DNA of 64,000 nt from Synergistales bacterium. GTDB taxonomy: Bacteria > Synergistota > Synergistia > Synergistales > JAFGMB01. Below, piece after piece: positions 24,759-31,515 of this stretch (its first letter is position 1; each line of letters opens with the position of its first letter). The DNA is taken from positions 1,600,001 to 1,664,000 of the forward strand of contig OY762654.1 in assembly GCA_963666205.1 (NCBI GenBank), written 5' to 3'. Both the position numbers and the translations under genes were made by a program. The notes under the pieces were generated by a model. It saw only the letters and a program-made list of their open reading frames with translations. It had not been told where the DNA came from and did no database searches.

Positions 24759-25006
24759 GGATAGCCCCTTTCGCAAAAAAGCAAATTGACACGGATAAGA
24801 TCCTCTTTTCACTTTTTTGCTACATAAAAGGTATTCCAGGAAAAGACTTATTAAGGAGGATGGTTCGTATATGGTTGGTCTTAAAAGTGGATATGGAAGG
24901 AGAAAAGCACTATATGTCTATGTAATGTATTATAATAATAAAAAGATGATATTTCAACTTAATAGATAATGTGCCAGTATCCGGATATCCGCAAGGAGAA
25001 GAGATC

Positions 25007-25411
25007 ATGAAAAAAAGCAGGCTGTTATTTGGTTTCCTGTGGTTGATGGCTCTCATACTAATCGTATTGGTTTCGATCATAAAGGGTTTCAGAGAAATTC
25101 ATTTTTTATGCTTACTGGAAAACTGGATACCCTTTGCTGACAAGGCAGCACATCTTGTTACATATATGTTTATGGCTTTTACTGTTACACTTTTTTTCAA
25201 GGGTAGCATATTAATGATATATTCAGTACTGGGCCTATGCCTCCTGGGAATAGTTCTGGAGATAATCCAGTTGCACGTGGCAGGAAGAACCTTTTCCTTT
25301 CTGGACTTAGCAGCAAACATAATTGGAGTTATTATCGGGTTTTCCATGGCATGGCTTGTTATGTCTCTTTTTCAGGGAAAAACTTCCTCCGGAATGAAAA
25401 AGGGCTGTTAA
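25007..25411 (+). CDS. VanZ-family membrane protein
   Basis: DK.AH...Y, EIIQL.V.GRTFS..DL.AN..G motifs. Confidence 0.85.
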   Translation: MKKSRLLFGFLWLMALILIVLVSIIKGFREIHFLCLLENWIPFADKAAHLVTYMFMAFTVTLFFKGSILMIYSVLGLCLLGIVLEIIQLHVAGRTFSFLDLAANIIGVIIGFSMAWLVMSLFQGKTSSGMKKGC

Positions 25412-25454
25412 TTCCGGAGGAATCAGATTCTGTTAAGGATCTTCTTCAGACGGC

Positions 25455-26984
25455 TCAAGAATCCTTCGTAATTATCTCCAAAGCCAGATCCATATCAACC
25501 TCTTCCCGCTTACCATCACCAAGCCACAGTTCGACCTTGCCCTCGGAAGCACCCCTTCCAACGACTATGGTAAAGGGCAGGTCCAGGATCTCTGCATCGG
25601 CAAACTTTACCCCACCCCGCATTTCCCTGTCATCCACCAGAACAGAAAGACCATTCTTCTCAAGGTCTTTCTCTATTTTTTGAGCCAGCTCTACTGCCTC
25701 GGCATTTTTCATGGACGGGATGGTTACAAGGGCATGGAAAGGAACTATTGAATCTGGCAGGGAGGTTTCCACTCTGAAGATTGCAGTCAGAAGGGATTCA
25801 GTCTGGACTGTCCCCTTCCAGAATGCCACCGGTGCTGGTTCATTGGACCCGTCCAGATAGGTGAGATCCTCTATCCTGCTCTTTGGACCAACCTTGAGAT
25901 AAAGGTCACAAAACTTTGTGAAATAGGTATCCTTCAATTCCCTTCCGCATTTGGGACATTTGTCTCCTGACTCAAGACTTGAAAGGTCTGCCATGGAATG
26001 GACACGAAAATCCCTTCCCCAGCAGGCACCTCTAAGATGAAAATCCTTTTTGTTTGCCCCGATAATTACATCTGAAGCTCCTTCAACACTTTTATCTGCA
26101 ACTATCAGTATATTTTCCGGCAGGCCTGCCGGGCCAAGAAAACCTTCCACATTCCCTATAGAATCAGCTATTTCCCGTGAAGTGGCAGGTCTGATATCTG
26201 GAACTCCAAGATGGGCAGCAAGTTTCGTTTCATTTACATTCCTGTCACCCCTGACAAGAACCGCAATAATTGAGCCTTCGTCAGGAGACGGGACAAATAG
26301 CATGGTCTTGACACACTTAAAGGGCTGTATATCCATAAAGCTGCAGAGATCTGCTATGGTCTTTATTCCCGGAGTGTGAACTTCTTTCATCTCCCCCGGA
26401 GAAGGGTTGGGATATTCAGTAAAAGGAATAAAGGATTCCGCCGTACCGCGCCAGCTGCAGTTGCTGTCCGAACAGGCAAGGCCCTTCTCTGAACGGTAAT
26501 AACCTTTGTCGGATCTTACTCCAAGGACATACCTCTGCCCACTTACGGAAACATCTTTCCACGAAAAAAGTTGTATCCCGAGACCTGTAACGAGAATCTC
26601 CATTTTTTCCCAGAAATTCTTTAATTCTTCCTCGGCAGTATAGAAGTCATGGGAATAACCTGCCAGCAATATTTCACTGTTTTTCTCTTCAAAAAGGATA
26701 AAAGGAAGATGACGGTAACTCTGGATAACTCCCCTTGCTATTGAAAGACCTCCATCATAAGCAAGGGAGGAACTGACTGGTTGAAATGACATGTTCATAA
26801 GTTTTTCCCTTAAAAAATCATGAAGTCTGCCCCTTATCATCACTCCCATCGGCAGGAGAGAAAGCCGGTTGCCATCACTTGAGAAAGAAGCATATCCCCT
26901 TCGAATCATGGACGTAAGGCCTGGATCTGTAACATGGGCAGGATTTTCCTTCATGGTAGGAAGAAGGAGAGAAGATATTTTCAT
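25455..26984 (-). CDS. Prolyl-tRNA-synthetase-like protein with degenerate aminoacylation core; INS/YbaK editing and anticodon-binding domains intact
   Basis: ProRS-like N-terminus (LLPTMKENP), INS domain (HTPGIKTI, VKT, LVRGD..VNE.KL, GFLGP, GAN..DFH), C-terminal VDDR..GVKFADAE. No PTHEE loop, motif 2 or motif 3. Confidence 0.8.
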   Translation of the reverse strand: MKISSLLLPTMKENPAHVTDPGLTSMIRRGYASFSSDGNRLSLLPMGVMIRGRLHDFLREKLMNMSFQPVSSSLAYDGGLSIARGVIQSYRHLPFILFEEKNSEILLAGYSHDFYTAEEELKNFWEKMEILVTGLGIQLFSWKDVSVSGQRYVLGVRSDKGYYRSEKGLACSDSNCSWRGTAESFIPFTEYPNPSPGEMKEVHTPGIKTIADLCSFMDIQPFKCVKTMLFVPSPDEGSIIAVLVRGDRNVNETKLAAHLGVPDIRPATSREIADSIGNVEGFLGPAGLPENILIVADKSVEGASDVIIGANKKDFHLRGACWGRDFRVHSMADLSSLESGDKCPKCGRELKDTYFTKFCDLYLKVGPKSRIEDLTYLDGSNEPAPVAFWKGTVQTESLLTAIFRVETSLPDSIVPFHALVTIPSMKNAEAVELAQKIEKDLEKNGLSVLVDDREMRGGVKFADAEILDLPFTIVVGRGASEGKVELWLGDGKREEVDMDLALEIITKDS

Positions 26985-27203
26985 TTTGATCAACCTTTCA
27001 ATCTGGAATTACGCATAATAACGTGATTCAGAACAACTCAGACATAAACATTTTTATTATAGATCAGCGCAGAGAATAATCAGATCATATTTTAACTTAG
27101 TCAATAATGGTCAGTTATTACACACACTTTTTCGGTAGATTTACTTTAAATGTCATATAACAATCTCAAAAATTTCAGAATATATTTATGTTTCAGGGGT
27201 AAT

Positions 27204-27236
27204 AAAAAACAGGCCTATTTTCCAGGCCTGTTTTTT
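27204..27236. terminator. Intrinsic terminator (symmetric A/T tails) downstream of the usp gene
   Basis: AAAAAACAGGCCT-N7-AGGCCTGTTTTTT. Confidence 0.75.
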
Positions 27237-27369
27237 GTAAATCGGACAATAATTATTATGGAATCAGGATATTCTGATGTCTATGTGTTTCCGGACCTCA
27301 TATTCCCGGTCATTTTCTGAAGATTTAATGGCTTAAAATCCAAAATCAAGATTCAAAAATCCCCAATTG

Positions 27370-27831
27370 TTACAGTGGCATTTCCCCCGGCCTGTAAATA
27401 AGGACCGAACAGGAGGCATATCTGGCTATATTGGTAGTAGTGCTTCCTACGAACATCTGCTTTATGGGACTGTCGTCACGGTATCCTGCAATGATGAGGG
27501 AATATTTACCTTCTTTAGACTTTTTGATAACCTCATCGGCCGGGTTGCCCTCTTCAATAAAAAGCTGATGCTCATGTTCAGGTGCACCGGGATATTTTGT
27601 TTCGGCATCTTCAAGCCATTTCTTGACTGTAAATTTATAGGCTTTTATCGCATCCTTGAGCACATCTTCGGGGATCCAGTTTTTATATCCCTTCCAGGGT
27701 GTTGAGGGGTGCTCAAGAACATGAATAAAATCGAGTTGAAGATCCATTTCATGTGCTATCTTGTGGCTATAGGCCACAAGATCCTTTGAGAGGTCACTAA
27801 CACCAATGGCTACAAGCACTTTTCCAGGCAT
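27370..27831 (-). CDS. Universal stress protein (UspA family)
   Basis: KVLVAI, IHV, GNPADEVI...LII.G...MFVGSTTTNIARYASCSVLI. Confidence 0.9.
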   Translation of the reverse strand: MPGKVLVAIGVSDLSKDLVAYSHKIAHEMDLQLDFIHVLEHPSTPWKGYKNWIPEDVLKDAIKAYKFTVKKWLEDAETKYPGAPEHEHQLFIEEGNPADEVIKKSKEGKYSLIIAGYRDDSPIKQMFVGSTTTNIARYASCSVLIYRPGEMPL

Positions 27832-28040
27832 TTATACTCCTCCTTAAATAAATTAATGAGAAAAATATTCCCGAACAAACTAAATCATTGATTAAATAGT
27901 ATACCAGTTCAGAAAGATTATTGTTATTGAGCGATCCCATTATGAAAAATTTCGATTGTCTGAAAGATCGGGACTTTTCACCATATTTTTCTACTGAAAA
28001 TTGTTATACAAGAATTTATTAATAAGATCTTTTCATGTAG

Positions 28041-28090: not shown

Positions 28091-28873
28091 TTATGGTATG
28101 GGAAAGTAAATAACGTGGGATCCGTCATCTCTTTCTCGATCGATTACCCTGTAGATTCTGCCCCTGATCCTGTCCCATGCGTAATTACCCATATTCACGA
28201 TCTGACCTGAACCATTAAGAAAGGTGAAGTTCCTGCTTACTGCCCAGTTATTTCCAACATATCCTCTAACAGGTACAGCAAGAGGAAGCTTTCCCTTAAC
28301 TTCTGGCTCGGTCCAGTTTCCAATAACAGGATTCATTTCCTTATCCTTAAGCATATTGATTATCGAAAGATATTCAGCAGGAGCTGTTTTCATAAAGTGG
28401 TACCTTGACCTTGACGACCGGGAAAGGTCGTTTAAAAAATTTCTTGCAAGCCATGCTGAACCTTTCCTGTCCATCCGGACCAGCTCAAGGGATGCAACAT
28501 ATACCGCATCTATAGCTGCAAGAGGTTTTGGAATTATTCCCGGATACCAGAAACCTTCAACATCGTTCCATCTTCTTATATCCGAATCAGGATATAGCTC
28601 ATCGATCAATTTGATAGCGTTAGCAGCTCTTTTTTCTGGATCTATACTTTCATTCCAGAGAGTTCTCCATAGATCATAACCTGTCTTTTTATCAGCCTTG
28701 AGTTTCAGTTCCCTTAAAAGTTCCCCGGCATTTTTTTCCCAGTTTGAAGAATTAAGGTAACTTGAATAAAGCTCATCGAAAGATTTTTCAGAAGCATTTA
28801 TTCGCGGTACATAAAGAGAAAATAGAAGAGAAAATGCAAGGAAATAAAAGATTATTTTTTTTAAATACTTCAT
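28091..28873 (-). CDS. Hypothetical exported protein
   Basis: Signal peptide MKYLKKIIFYFLAFSLLFSLYVPRINA; GAGGTGA RBS before ATG 28873. Confidence 0.75.
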   Translation of the reverse strand: MKYLKKIIFYFLAFSLLFSLYVPRINASEKSFDELYSSYLNSSNWEKNAGELLRELKLKADKKTGYDLWRTLWNESIDPEKRAANAIKLIDELYPDSDIRRWNDVEGFWYPGIIPKPLAAIDAVYVASLELVRMDRKGSAWLARNFLNDLSRSSRSRYHFMKTAPAEYLSIINMLKDKEMNPVIGNWTEPEVKGKLPLAVPVRGYVGNNWAVSRNFTFLNGSGQIVNMGNYAWDRIRGRIYRVIDRERDDGSHVIYFPIP

Positions 28874-29062
28874 TTTTCTCACCTCACAATTTTTTTTTGC
28901 CATTAATGGATTATGGGACATAGATGAAAGTTTTAAAAGTTAGAAGATATAAACAATAATTATAATAATTATAACTTTTATTACCTATATGTAAAGAACA
29001 CTTATACCTGAATAAAACCGGTGGGGAAATAATATAACTGTTTAATTGGTAAAATAGATGAA

Positions 29063-29563
29063 TTAAGAGGGTTTTCTGCTGTTTTCGTCAGATCCGAACC
29101 TTTTTCTGTATGTAGCCTTCAGATTTGCAAGGGCCCTGGCAAGTTTTTCATCATCCAGCCTTTTTTCCATATATTCGAGTTCCCTTTTAACATCCTGAGG
29201 GGAAGGGTTTATTCTTATAGTATTCCGGGTCTGTTGAGATGAAGAGTTTTTTCTTTCCTGCCGTCCAACGTAAACCTTAACACCGGATATATCAAGGTCC
29301 CATATTGATTTTATCCTCTCTCTGACTGTACCAGCCCTCATTTTTACCTGCTGTGCAACAGAAGAGCTTGAAGCAATAACTACAAGATGATCTTCTTCCA
29401 GACCTGAAACACTGCTTTTTCCAGCAAGAAGGGGACCAACAACCTCGATCCAGTTCTGACTTATTTCAGAAATCTTCATTCTCTTTAACACCTTCGGATG
29501 AAGAGCACCTGTTATAAGTCCCGAAAGCTTCCTTGGTCTACTCCTGAACCTTTTCTTCGCCAT
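29063..29563 (-). CDS. DUF721/DciA family replicative helicase loader
   Basis: W.EVVG..LA.KS....L....LVV.A.SS..AQQ signature; origin-proximal. Confidence 0.75.
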   Translation of the reverse strand: MAKKRFRSRPRKLSGLITGALHPKVLKRMKISEISQNWIEVVGPLLAGKSSVSGLEEDHLVVIASSSSVAQQVKMRAGTVRERIKSIWDLDISGVKVYVGRQERKNSSSQQTRNTIRINPSPQDVKRELEYMEKRLDDEKLARALANLKATYRKRFGSDENSRKPS

Positions 29564-31445
29564 TTTTTACCTTCTTCCTCTGTCTCTGGGCATGAAGAAC
29601 GACCGACAGCAATTGGAGGTCCGTTGGAGTAACTCCTGATATACGGCTTGCCTGCCCAAAGGTACCAGGTCTCACCTTTTCAAGCTTCTGGCGGCTTTCT
29701 GAAAGCAATCCCGGAACTGTTCCATAATCAAAATTCTCGGGTATCCTGACCGTTTCCATCTTACTTAGCCTTTTTACCTGCCTGTACTGTCTTTCGATAT
29801 ATCCTTTGTATTTTATCTCTATTGAAATACTGTTTATTTCTTCATCGCTTAAAGTCTGAAGAGGAGGGGAAAAATTAGAAATAAGCCCATAGTCAACTCG
29901 AGGTCTGCTCAAAAGTGTCGCGGCAGGCACAGACTCATCAAGGGGTGCTGATCCAACCTCAGCAAGCCTGTTGTTTAACTCTTCCGAAGATCTTATCCTG
30001 GCATTGTATAACCTTTCAATTTCATCATCGATTTTCTTCCATTTGGAAATCAGAAATTTCCATTTTTCATCATTCACAAGTCCCAGTCTTCTTCCTATCG
30101 GGCAAAGTCTCCTGTCAACATTGTCATGTCTGAGTAGCAATCGGTATTCACATCTGCTCGTTAGCATCCGATAAGGTTCTTTGGTACCCTTGGTCACAAG
30201 GTCATCTATAAGAACACCTATATATGCCTCTGACCTGTCAAGAACAACAGGCTCCTCTCCCTTCAGGTAAAGAACCGCATTTATGGCTGCCATAAGGCCC
30301 TGGGCCCCTGCTTCCTCGTAACCGGATGTTCCGTTTATCTGACCGGCACAGTAAAGTCCCCTTACCCTTTTGGTTTCGAGACTGGGTTTAAGCTGGGTGG
30401 GAGGCATAAAATCATACTCTATGGCATAACCTGGTCGAATTATCTTTGCATTCTGGCATCCTGGTAAGGAATGTGTCATTTCTACCTGTACATCAAAGGG
30501 AAGACTTGTAGAAAAATTCTGCATGTAAATTTCCTTACTGTTCCTTGCTACAGGTTCAAGAAAAACCAGATGGCTGGATTTATCGGGAAATCCCACGACC
30601 TTGGATTCTATGGACGGACAGTACCTTGGGCCAACTCCTTCTATTCTTCCCGAGTAAAGGGGCGAACGGTCGAGGTTGTTCATTATTATTTCGTGGGTCT
30701 GGGGATTGCTCCTGGTTATATAACATGCGATTCCTTCATGGACCTTTTTTTCTCCCCAGATGTCAAAACAGAGGGGTTCATCAGAGCTGTCCTGCCTCTG
30801 AAGGGAATCCCAGTCAACCGTGTCTGCATGGATACGAGGGGTAGTACCCGTCTTCATTCTCCCTACCTCAAAACCAGCTTCCCTCAGTGACCCTGTAAGT
30901 TCCGTTGCTGCCACCTGTCCCAGGGGTCCGGATGGAAATGATGTCATACCTATATGGACAGCCCCTCCAAGATAAGTTCCGGTGGTAAGGATAACTGCAG
31001 GCGCGTAAAACACAAGGCCAAGCCTTGTCTCCACACCTTTTATGCAGTTATTTTCTACAATGATCCCGGTAACTATATCCTGGAAAACATCTAGATTAGC
31101 AGTATTTTCGAGGGCGAGAATATAATGATCGTGATATTCATGAAGGTCACACTGGGCACGAAGAGCCTGAACGGCAGGACCCTTTGATGTATTAAGCCAT
31201 CGTATGTGCATGGTAGAAGCATCGGCTGCCCTTGCCTGTTCTCCTCCAAGGGCAGATATCTCCATTGTAAGGTTCGCCTTTGCCGGACTTCCAATGGAAG
31301 GATTACATGCCATGAGAGCCACATTGTCATGATAAAGGTTTATCATAAGAGTCCTGGAACCCATCCTTGCTGCCGCAAGAGATGCCTCGCATCCGGCATG
31401 TCCTCCGCCTACGACAATAACATCATAATCTGAACTTATATCCAT
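29538..31445 (-). CDS. mnmG: tRNA uridine-5-carboxymethylaminomethyl(34) synthesis enzyme MnmG
   Basis: GGGHAGCEA, MACNPSIG, KTGTTPR, GPRYCPSIE, AGQINGTSGYEEA, EPYRMLTSR. Confidence 0.97.
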   Translation of the reverse strand: MDISSDYDVIVVGGGHAGCEASLAAARMGSRTLMINLYHDNVALMACNPSIGSPAKANLTMEISALGGEQARAADASTMHIRWLNTSKGPAVQALRAQCDLHEYHDHYILALENTANLDVFQDIVTGIIVENNCIKGVETRLGLVFYAPAVILTTGTYLGGAVHIGMTSFPSGPLGQVAATELTGSLREAGFEVGRMKTGTTPRIHADTVDWDSLQRQDSSDEPLCFDIWGEKKVHEGIACYITRSNPQTHEIIMNNLDRSPLYSGRIEGVGPRYCPSIESKVVGFPDKSSHLVFLEPVARNSKEIYMQNFSTSLPFDVQVEMTHSLPGCQNAKIIRPGYAIEYDFMPPTQLKPSLETKRVRGLYCAGQINGTSGYEEAGAQGLMAAINAVLYLKGEEPVVLDRSEAYIGVLIDDLVTKGTKEPYRMLTSRCEYRLLLRHDNVDRRLCPIGRRLGLVNDEKWKFLISKWKKIDDEIERLYNARIRSSEELNNRLAEVGSAPLDESVPAATLLSRPRVDYGLISNFSPPLQTLSDEEINSISIEIKYKGYIERQYRQVKRLSKMETVRIPENFDYGTVPGLLSESRQKLEKVRPGTFGQASRISGVTPTDLQLLSVVLHAQRQRKKVKNGEEKVQE

Positions 31446-31515
31446 GGTCCTCACCTTTTATCCCGGATTTGCATACTCTTATCCTGATCTGAATTATATA
31501 TCAACTGACCTTCGG

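Follow-up and report, generated by a model that had tools for sequence, protein, structure and literature searches.

In Crenarchaeota, the editing half of a split threonyl-tRNA synthetase (ThrRS) exists as a separate protein, the Ser-tRNA(Thr) hydrolase ThrRS-ed. Bacterial prolyl-tRNA synthetases (ProRS) such as E. coli ProS or the E. faecalis enzyme (2J3L/2J3M) carry their editing domain, INS, in cis, and the same PF04073 domain with its Lys/GXXXP/His signature is common to the free-standing editors ProXp-ala (PrdX; C. crescentus 5VXB, human PRORSD1), YbaK, ProXp-x, ProXp-ST1/2, and ProXp-7/8/9. According to a 2024 review, INS-superfamily members other than the cis-INS are single-domain proteins and trans-editors generally lack RNA-binding domains, and ThrRS-ed is drawn with an anticodon-binding domain (ABD) in a figure legend of the same paper (PMC11295145). 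In Bacillus thuringiensis, a bacterial-type (P-type) and an archaeal/eukaryote-type (E-type) ProRS coexist with a bacterial-type tRNAPro (G72/A73), and both are active (PMC11229370). HisZ is mentioned as a HisRS paralog without aminoacylation activity (PMC5388404). Here, we report a minus-strand gene in a 64-kb stretch of contig OY762654.1 from a Synergistales bacterium (GCA_963666205.1; the whole stretch is referred to as the window, and gene coordinates are window positions). It encodes a ProRS paralog that has lost the aminoacylation site and retained the INS domain and the ABD; the protein is probably a dimeric, anticodon-guided trans-editor of Ala-tRNAPro and a relic of synthetase displacement.

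Over its whole length, the window protein resembles bacterial ProRS in three-part architecture, fold, editing residues, and ABD, and differs from the E. coli and E. faecalis enzymes in lacking motif 2 and the proline loop and in its replaced motif 3. With ProXp-ala it would share the presumed task of clearing Ala-tRNAPro for an INS-less ProRS; unlike ProXp-ala and the other single-domain editors (~150–180 aa), it comprises 509 aa including a dead synthetase core and an ABD. ThrRS-ed follows the same logic, with a separate editing domain and a synthetase-type ABD proofreading for an editing-less catalytic enzyme; its editing domain is unrelated and its tRNA different, making it an analog and not a relative, and its model NF011500 gave only a weak match confined to the ABD (E 0.07, 12.1 bits versus 362). 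The statement in the initial annotation that known free-standing editors are single-domain is borne out for the INS superfamily, whereas ThrRS-ed with its ABD contradicts it (PMC11295145). The two-ProRS state of B. thuringiensis presumably represents an earlier stage, from which the window genome differs in that its P-type copy has no aminoacylation site. HisZ likewise is a class IIa paralog that lost charging and was retained for another role; in HisZ this role is regulatory, as a subunit of a biosynthetic enzyme, whereas the window protein most likely continues the editing of the synthetase from which it derives. A full-length ProRS without catalytic activity was not found described in the literature searched, including a large survey of synthetase paralogs (PMC5388404) and AARS Online (PMC11580382), with subscription-only papers and supplements outside the scope of the search.

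The open reading frame at 25455..26993 is uninterrupted, as initially claimed, and comprises 512 aa when counted from its TTG start; an ATG at 26984 gives 509 aa, and this start matches the N-termini of orthologs and genuine ProRS in the alignment. Pfam analysis of the 509-aa protein identified a tRNA_edit domain (PF04073) at residues 204–324 (82.5 bits versus a gathering threshold of 25.5, E 3.3e-23) and an HGTP_anticodon domain (PF03129) at residues 420–506 (E 2.8e-12), and no match to the class II core domain PF00587, which all genuine ProRS matches carry. The cut-offs of the bacterial ProRS models NF006625 (NCBIfam proS equivalog; 212.3 bits, cut-off 558) and TIGR00409 (119.6 bits, cut-off 306.7) were not reached. 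In a comparison with solved structures, a good alignment to E. faecalis ProRS was obtained only for residues 197–488, and a weak one for the first 65 residues.

The synthetic site was evaluated in alignments of family members with genuine bacterial ProRS, using E. coli MG1655 ProS as annotated reference; columns were taken as conserved when present in at least 90% of 19 genuine ProRS and as kept when shared by 36 or more of the 40 family members. In every one of the 40 family members, a gap of ~36 residues takes the place of the proline-binding region (...SGRW...GPTHEE...). Motif 2 (KFRDExRPRFGxxRxREF, 18 residues), which corresponds to the E. coli K138-F155 region and contains R144, is deleted, and the position of motif 3 (MGCYGIGxxR) now reads FWKGTVQTES. 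Five further residues are missing from the SG.IGG segment and four ahead of the ABD. Deletions in the core amount to ~60 residues. The initial annotation, made from the window sequence, had noted the missing PTHEE-loop segment, the lost motif 2, and the replaced motif 3, and all seven of its specific sequence statements proved correct on alignment to E. coli and genuine ProRS. None of the motif 2, motif 3, and THEE-loop residues is retained in any of the 40 members; this loss pattern recurs in every aligned member and is thus not due to chance. Only 6 of 76 conserved columns are kept in the N-terminal core and 2 of 22 in the post-INS core, the latter being two Cys; the RGIEVGH.F.LG.KYS block is degraded. 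Mean pairwise identity of the core is 0.28–0.29 within the family versus 0.58 among genuine ProRS. R144 of E. coli ProRS reads G72/A73 (PMC11229370); loss of the motif 2 loop therefore removes the acceptor-stem reader used during charging. Retention of the class II core fold might be taken to indicate an aminoacyl-tRNA synthetase or amino-acid ligase with a rebuilt active site, which we regard as extremely improbable: the ATP-binding residues of motifs 2 and 3 are all missing in 40/40 members, ~60 core residues are deleted, and the same genome encodes a complete E-type ProRS. Residual synthetase activity was rejected on these grounds.

In the INS domain, 14 of 18 conserved columns are kept, and 12 columns are retained in all 40 family members. 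Mean pairwise identity within the family (0.51) even exceeds that among genuine ProRS (0.44). Mapping on MG1655 ProS assigned T204, I210, L213, K226, and H316 to T257, I263, L266, K279, and H369, respectively, and the loop residues G281, G284, and P285 to G336, G339, and P340. The VKT lysine, the GFLGP loop, and the DFH motif, described as conserved in the initial annotation, thus align to the E. coli sites; further kept residues are P258, T262, T280, D350, G362, A363, R377, and D378 (E. coli numbering). K226, G281, G284, and H316 are present in 40/40 members, P285 in ≥90% of 59 sequences, and I210 and H316 show little or no variation within the family. In E. coli ProRS, the K279A exchange renders the enzyme editing-defective (PMC3973320), and the Ala specificity of INS depends on L266 and H369, with H369 acting as a gatekeeper that excludes Pro-tRNAPro: its exchange to Ala switches the substrate from Ala- to Pro-tRNAPro (bioRxiv 10.1101/2020.09.11.293571). 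ProXp-ala proteins are called by a K, H, and GXXXP signature in the same source. The window INS is nearer in sequence to cis-INS than to YbaK, and the YbaK equivalog TIGR00011 was not reached (22.5 bits, cut-off 153.25). Conservation of the anticodon domain, also stated initially, is confirmed by the PF03129 match together with the motif VDDREMRGGVKFADAE; the window ABD shares 0.33 identity with genuine ABDs versus 0.22 in the other Synergistota clade.

Four Cys residues, C171, C176, C343, and C346 (codons at ~26470-26472, 26455-26457, 25954-25956, and 25945-25947), flank the entry and exit of INS and occur without exception in the 59 aligned sequences, whether dead or genuine. Their spacing is C-x4-C in the window protein and CxxC in most relatives, plus CPxC. 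They resemble a structural zinc site positioned at the INS base. The second Cys pair is absent from E. faecalis ProRS, and one ABD-less form has none of these Cys.

The complete, Acetomicrobium-like host genome (2.95 Mb) encodes an intact E-type ProRS without an editing domain at G000:C1:693446-694867 (479 aa with a terminal Tyr; TIGR00408, 553 bits versus a cut-off of 437), in agreement with the initial prediction of an INS-less ProRS elsewhere in the genome; a profile search of the host genome found no P-type ProRS above cut-off. All three tRNAPro genes (UGG, CGG, GGG) start with C1 and end with G72-A73 and are thus of the bacterial type.

The INS domain alone has no tRNAPro recognition and relies on an ABD binding G35/G36; acceptor-stem changes are immaterial to INS, the reverse of what applies to ProXp-ala (PMC3973320, PMC11295145). 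A displaced ProRS that is kept for editing must therefore keep the ABD and a core that holds ABD and INS in register, and, since its aminoacylation site is destroyed, its editing must be directed in trans at tRNA charged by a different and unrelated ProRS. In the proposed mechanism, the ABD would capture tRNAPro via G35/G36, the inactive catalytic core would serve as a rigid dimeric scaffold between ABD and INS, and the INS pocket would hydrolyze Ala-tRNAPro mis-made by the editing-less E-type ProRS. In the simplest history, an ancestor of the Synergistales would have acquired the archaeal-type enzyme, and the resident bacterial one would then have been stripped of its synthetic site and kept for editing. 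The proposal of a dedicated trans-editing factor on a synthetase scaffold, put forward in the initial annotation, is supported by the E-type partner, by the absence of a P-type ProRS above cut-off, and by purifying selection (see below), and its rationale that the scaffold serves tRNAPro recognition agrees with the published dependence of INS on the ABD; from the residues and domains retained, we infer hydrolase activity, Ala specificity, and anticodon dependence.

The ratio of nonsynonymous to synonymous substitutions (dN/dS, Nei-Gojobori) was 0.21 for the window gene versus its 79%-identical ortholog L025 (one pair). By region, values of 0.26 (N-terminal core), 0.19 (INS), 0.25 (post-INS core), and 0.08 (ABD, at a near-saturated dS of 1.9) were obtained, pointing to purifying selection and not to neutral decay. 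A second paralog of the same genome (P0122, see below) gave 0.22 versus its own ortholog (one pair). Compared with the Acetomicrobium hydrogeniformans ortholog, dS was very uneven, rising from 0.30–0.37 over the 5' two-thirds to 0.94 after INS and to 1.9 in the ABD; environmental contigs differed from the window at 22–28 positions in 25000-26037 and at none in 26060-27006. Together, these observations suggest a recombination breakpoint near 26040-26060.

An AlphaFold2 model (59-row alignment) reached a pLDDT of 93.1 and a pTM of 0.87 and superposed over its whole length on E. faecalis ProRS 2j3l/2j3m, its best PDB match, with TM scores of 0.79–0.81. The top 11 Foldseek matches were all bacterial ProRS (best E 3.6e-46), in the domain order core, inserted INS, and ABD. 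Homodimer prediction with residues 1–410 gave a score of 0.69 versus 0.00 for the best control, a mark that 20 of 30 known homodimers and 1 of 23 monomers attained. Agreement between runs covered at least 86% of contacts at a partner pLDDT of at least 85, and the predicted interface (residues 5–9, 33–51, 66–86, and 100–103) corresponds to the motif 1 region. From this model, we infer a dimeric state; as solved ProRS dimers exist, the pass may reflect only likeness to them.

Loss of the catalytic motifs could also mark a pseudogene that decays after displacement by an archaeal-type ProRS, and both the graded bacterial-ProRS scores of Anaerolineae copies (480 to 108 bits) and truncated or stop-containing copies in some Synergistota (G113) would fit such a process. 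For the window gene, this explanation is very improbable and was rejected: its reading frame is intact at a dN/dS of 0.21, the predicted fold is confident, and the family is preserved as a single Synergistales-wide clade with invariant INS residues.

A word-indexed search retrieved seven ortholog clusters with 65–98% identity, followed by genuine ProRS at ~29%. A 15-member profile matched 57 of 121 Synergistota genomes, which were sorted by match tables into three groups. Dead ProRS were assigned in 43 of 114 Synergistales genomes, with a match reaching the ABD region in 29 and a short or fragmentary one in 14; the remaining matches were weak ABD-level hits to other synthetases (7) or full bacterial ProRS (7), the latter all from the deep-branching families f11–f13. 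E-type ProRS was present in 111 of the 121 genomes and in 0/7 of f11–f13, where genuine bacterial ProRS was found in 5/5 genomes tested (788–829 bits). In two small Synergistales genomes of family f6 (G018 and G035, 1.2 Mb, 93–94% complete), neither ProRS type was matched at the thresholds used, which may be due to incompleteness or a divergent enzyme. ABD-less forms consisting of a core remnant and INS occur in Synergistaceae (L112:1211-2482 (-), L111:1135-2307 (-), and L113:1273-2430 (+)); the three ORFs read comprise 424, 391, and 386 aa, and two were also Pfam-scanned.

A 72-row tree places the 47 dead copies together on one side of a branch (SH-aLRT 100, stem length 1.4); they fall into clades of the window protein (7 rows), Thermovirgaceae (16), and the second paralog (24), which split near the base. 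The two Acetomicrobium copies are thus old paralogs, or one was transferred, and do not stem from a recent duplication. In a tree from the INS and ABD columns, the Synergistota dead clade joins a Chloroflexota clade through a weak branch (79); descent from the deep-branching Synergistota ProRS was not resolved in either tree. At 14 loci of the Thermovirgaceae clade, among them L027, a gene for a 132-aa secreted Gly-rich protein and then dnaK come after the dead ProRS gene in the same orientation; this arrangement may connect it to protein quality control or be nothing more than synteny.

The second dead ProRS of the host genome, P0122 (G000:C1:1001068-1002582 (-), locus L005:1432-2952 (-), 507 aa), is 32% identical to the window protein over its full length and shares the same deletions; its ABD motif is degraded (DDRDKKINSKLDDS), and within the family it falls into another deep clade. 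The two Acetomicrobium paralogs might split the work, the window copy being anticodon-guided and the degraded-ABD copy guided otherwise or directed to another substrate. PF04073 proteins were found in 116 of 121 Synergistota genomes, usually several in each, and the host genome has six PF04073 matches. A decayed YbaK-like pseudogene with five in-frame stops is located at G000:C1:2486487-2486819 (+); the dead ProRS genes, by contrast, are intact. Among the 114 Synergistales genomes, 8 have both a dead ProRS and a ProXp-ala homolog, 35 only the former, 38 only the latter, and 33 neither. The association is negative yet not exclusive (odds ratio 0.20), and its nominal p-value exaggerates the case because related genomes are not independent; the tendency of the two to replace each other in Synergistales lends partial support to the proposed editing function.

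Six PF04073 matches in one genome, among them a ProXp-ala homolog and YbaK, and two dead paralogs with 32% identity from different deep clades would also be compatible with a trans-editor that removes Ser, Cys, Thr, or a non-protein amino acid from tRNAPro, or Ala from another tRNA, with Ala-tRNAPro left to the ProXp-ala homolog. Changes at L266 or H369 retune INS specificity (bioRxiv 10.1101/2020.09.11.293571), but in the window protein the residues of the Ala-specificity pocket corresponding to I263, L266, and H369 are unchanged, I210 and H316 are (near-)invariant in the family, and the ABD motif is of the ProRS type. The negative association with ProXp-ala, too, suggests overlapping rather than distinct roles, and we consider another substrate unlikely.

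A non-hydrolytic role was also considered, in which the protein would bind tRNAPro as a chaperone, sensor, or scaffold and hand it to YbaK, the E-type ProRS, or EF-Tu, or would act as a charging-responsive regulator. The retained dimeric scaffold and ABD fit such a role; YbaK acts in a ternary complex with ProRS and tRNA (PMC11295145), and the E-type ProRS of the host is unrelated to the usual partner of YbaK. The strongest conservation, however, concerns hydrolytic-site residues (the 12 columns kept in 40/40 members) and not the tRNA-binding parts, and the ABD-less forms retain INS; a purely tRNA-binding function thus appears rather improbable.

Several observations weigh against an anticodon-guided Ala-tRNAPro trans-editor. 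Across the family, the conserved ABD columns are mostly lost (3 of 21 kept), and with 14 of 43 copies short or fragmentary and the three inspected ones devoid of an ABD, anticodon guidance is not essential family-wide. The host genome additionally encodes YbaK (171.9 bits, cut-off 153.25), a TTHA1699-like editor, and the ProXp-ala homolog (PDB 1vki, E 7.5e-28; 5vxb, E 7e-22). Given the YbaK and ProXp-ala homologs, the window protein is probably not the sole Ala editor; Ala-tRNAPro might already be edited by other enzymes, and the tasks of the two paralogs may differ. The 33 Synergistales genomes with neither a dead ProRS nor a ProXp-ala homolog do without both. The dN/dS values are based on a single ortholog pair per gene, with the ABD close to saturation. 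Finally, metatranscriptome contigs from two studies cover the gene, which is compatible with expression but no proof of transcription.

Outside Synergistota, an exhaustive profile search among 1.84 billion representatives gave 1079 matches at E ≤1e-30. Copies were labeled dead by regular expressions, with 16 sequences checked by eye: 128 of the 149 further matches listed (P0131-P0279) lacked all three motif patterns, as did 100 sequences of at least 480 aa among the listed P0152-P0279. The alignment of 16 non-Synergistota copies revealed scrambled or deleted motifs 2 and 3 next to an intact INS and a very canonical ABD; one cluster is named 'hypothetical protein [Anaerolinea sp.]'. Loci L074 and L077 from Anaerolineae metagenome-assembled genomes are of the dead type; these genomes have E-type ProRS scoring 582 and 581 bits, respectively, and no P-type ProRS above cut-off (276 and 207 bits). 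Among 61 genomes of the class of L074 (from G128-G191), 33 have a genuine P-type ProRS above cut-off, 21 of them together with an E-type enzyme, the state known from B. thuringiensis. In 21 genomes, only a sub-threshold P-type copy (480 down to 108 bits) was detected, always accompanied by an E-type ProRS (21/21), and 7 genomes had no P-type copy, 5 of these with an E-type. A degenerate copy was found in 0/14 genomes without an E-type match. The scores of the Anaerolineae copies with the bacterial ProRS model are graded from 755 down to 108 bits, and three full-length copies at 411–480 bits may either have lost activity recently or be active enzymes of an unusual kind.

In the INS and ABD tree, the Synergistota family forms one clade (98), 19 other dead copies including L074 and L077 cluster with genuine Dehalococcoidia/SAR202 ProRS (100), and further dead copies are interspersed with genuine enzymes. 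On this quick tree with several long branches, the label for dead copies outside Synergistota requires seven changes, at least two of which are forced by well-supported branches. The scatter thus indicates that the synthetic site was lost repeatedly and independently, with editing retained. It is possible, though doubtful at present, that dead P-type ProRS constitute a widespread, repeatedly evolved class of multidomain trans-editors ('ProRS-ed') marking a general route from cis to free-standing editing. Along this route, a foreign synthetase would arrive, coexist with the resident enzyme, which would lose its synthetic site and subsequently its ABD, and finally a small stand-alone domain would remain; stages 1 to 4 are each seen in living genomes, stage 5 being the small stand-alone domain.

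Features of the window gene and its upstream region are listed in Table 1. The neighboring genes encode a VanZ-like protein, Usp, a 276-aa protein of unknown function, DciA, and MnmG, none of them tRNA-related. A functional link via neighbors was sought and rejected, the dnaK synteny being confined to the 14 Thermovirgaceae-clade loci. The 276-aa protein (28094-28921) is secreted and matches no Pfam family; the DciA-family gene of the helicase-loader type (29066-29563 (-)) lies directly downstream of, and overlaps, the MnmG gene (29538-31454 (-)). The hairpin and T-run after the Usp gene suggest that the dead ProRS gene may form its own transcription unit. The stretch 27025-27186 is not covered by the metatranscriptome contigs, which is no evidence of a transcript end. 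An Rfam search for a T-box or other leader RNA over 24800-27900 at E ≤1 returned only a chance snoU13 match, and no tRNA genes are present in the 64-kb window.

Table 1. Coordinates of the dead ProRS gene, its domains and key codons, and putative upstream signals (window positions).
Feature	Position	Strand	Basis or remark
Dead ProRS paralog, whole gene	25455..26984	(-)	509 aa + stop; alternative TTG at 26993
N-terminal core; motif 1/dimer-interface region kept, Pro-binding loop (~36 aa) and motif 2 (18 aa) gone	26400..26984	(-)	alignments
Motif 2 deletion junction (approximate), between residues 103 and 104	26675..26677	(-)	alignments
INS editing domain, residues 196–335	25980..26399	(-)	PF04073, E 3.3e-23
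K226 codon (E. coli K279)	26307..26309	(-)	alignment to MG1655 ProS; 40/40 family members
H316 codon (E. coli H369, gatekeeper His)	26037..26039	(-)	alignment to MG1655 ProS; 40/40 family members
C-terminal catalytic-domain remnant, residues 336–410; CPKC pair kept, motif 3 replaced	25755..25979	(-)	alignments
Class IIa ABD, residues 411–509, with DDR..GVKFADAE	25458..25754	(-)	PF03129, E 2.8e-12
Promoter-like site TTGACT-17-GATTAT upstream of gene	27076..27104	(-)	consensus match only
GC hairpin and T-run after upstream Usp gene	27203..27230	(-)	read from sequence; not reported by the scan that gave the promoter-like site

Annotation names the dead copies 'prolyl-tRNA synthetase' (JGI names), a label by which synthetases are miscounted and the halofuginone-type E-form is hidden as the real ProRS. 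Proline-codon quality control is among the best-studied editing systems. If the proposed function is correct, the window protein and its relatives would be the first trans-editors of the INS superfamily to combine a dead synthetase scaffold with an anticodon-binding domain of their own, and the proline counterpart of crenarchaeal ThrRS-ed. Dead ProRS would then provide a natural multi-stage record of what follows the displacement of a synthetase by horizontal transfer, and would bear on the origins of free-standing editors.

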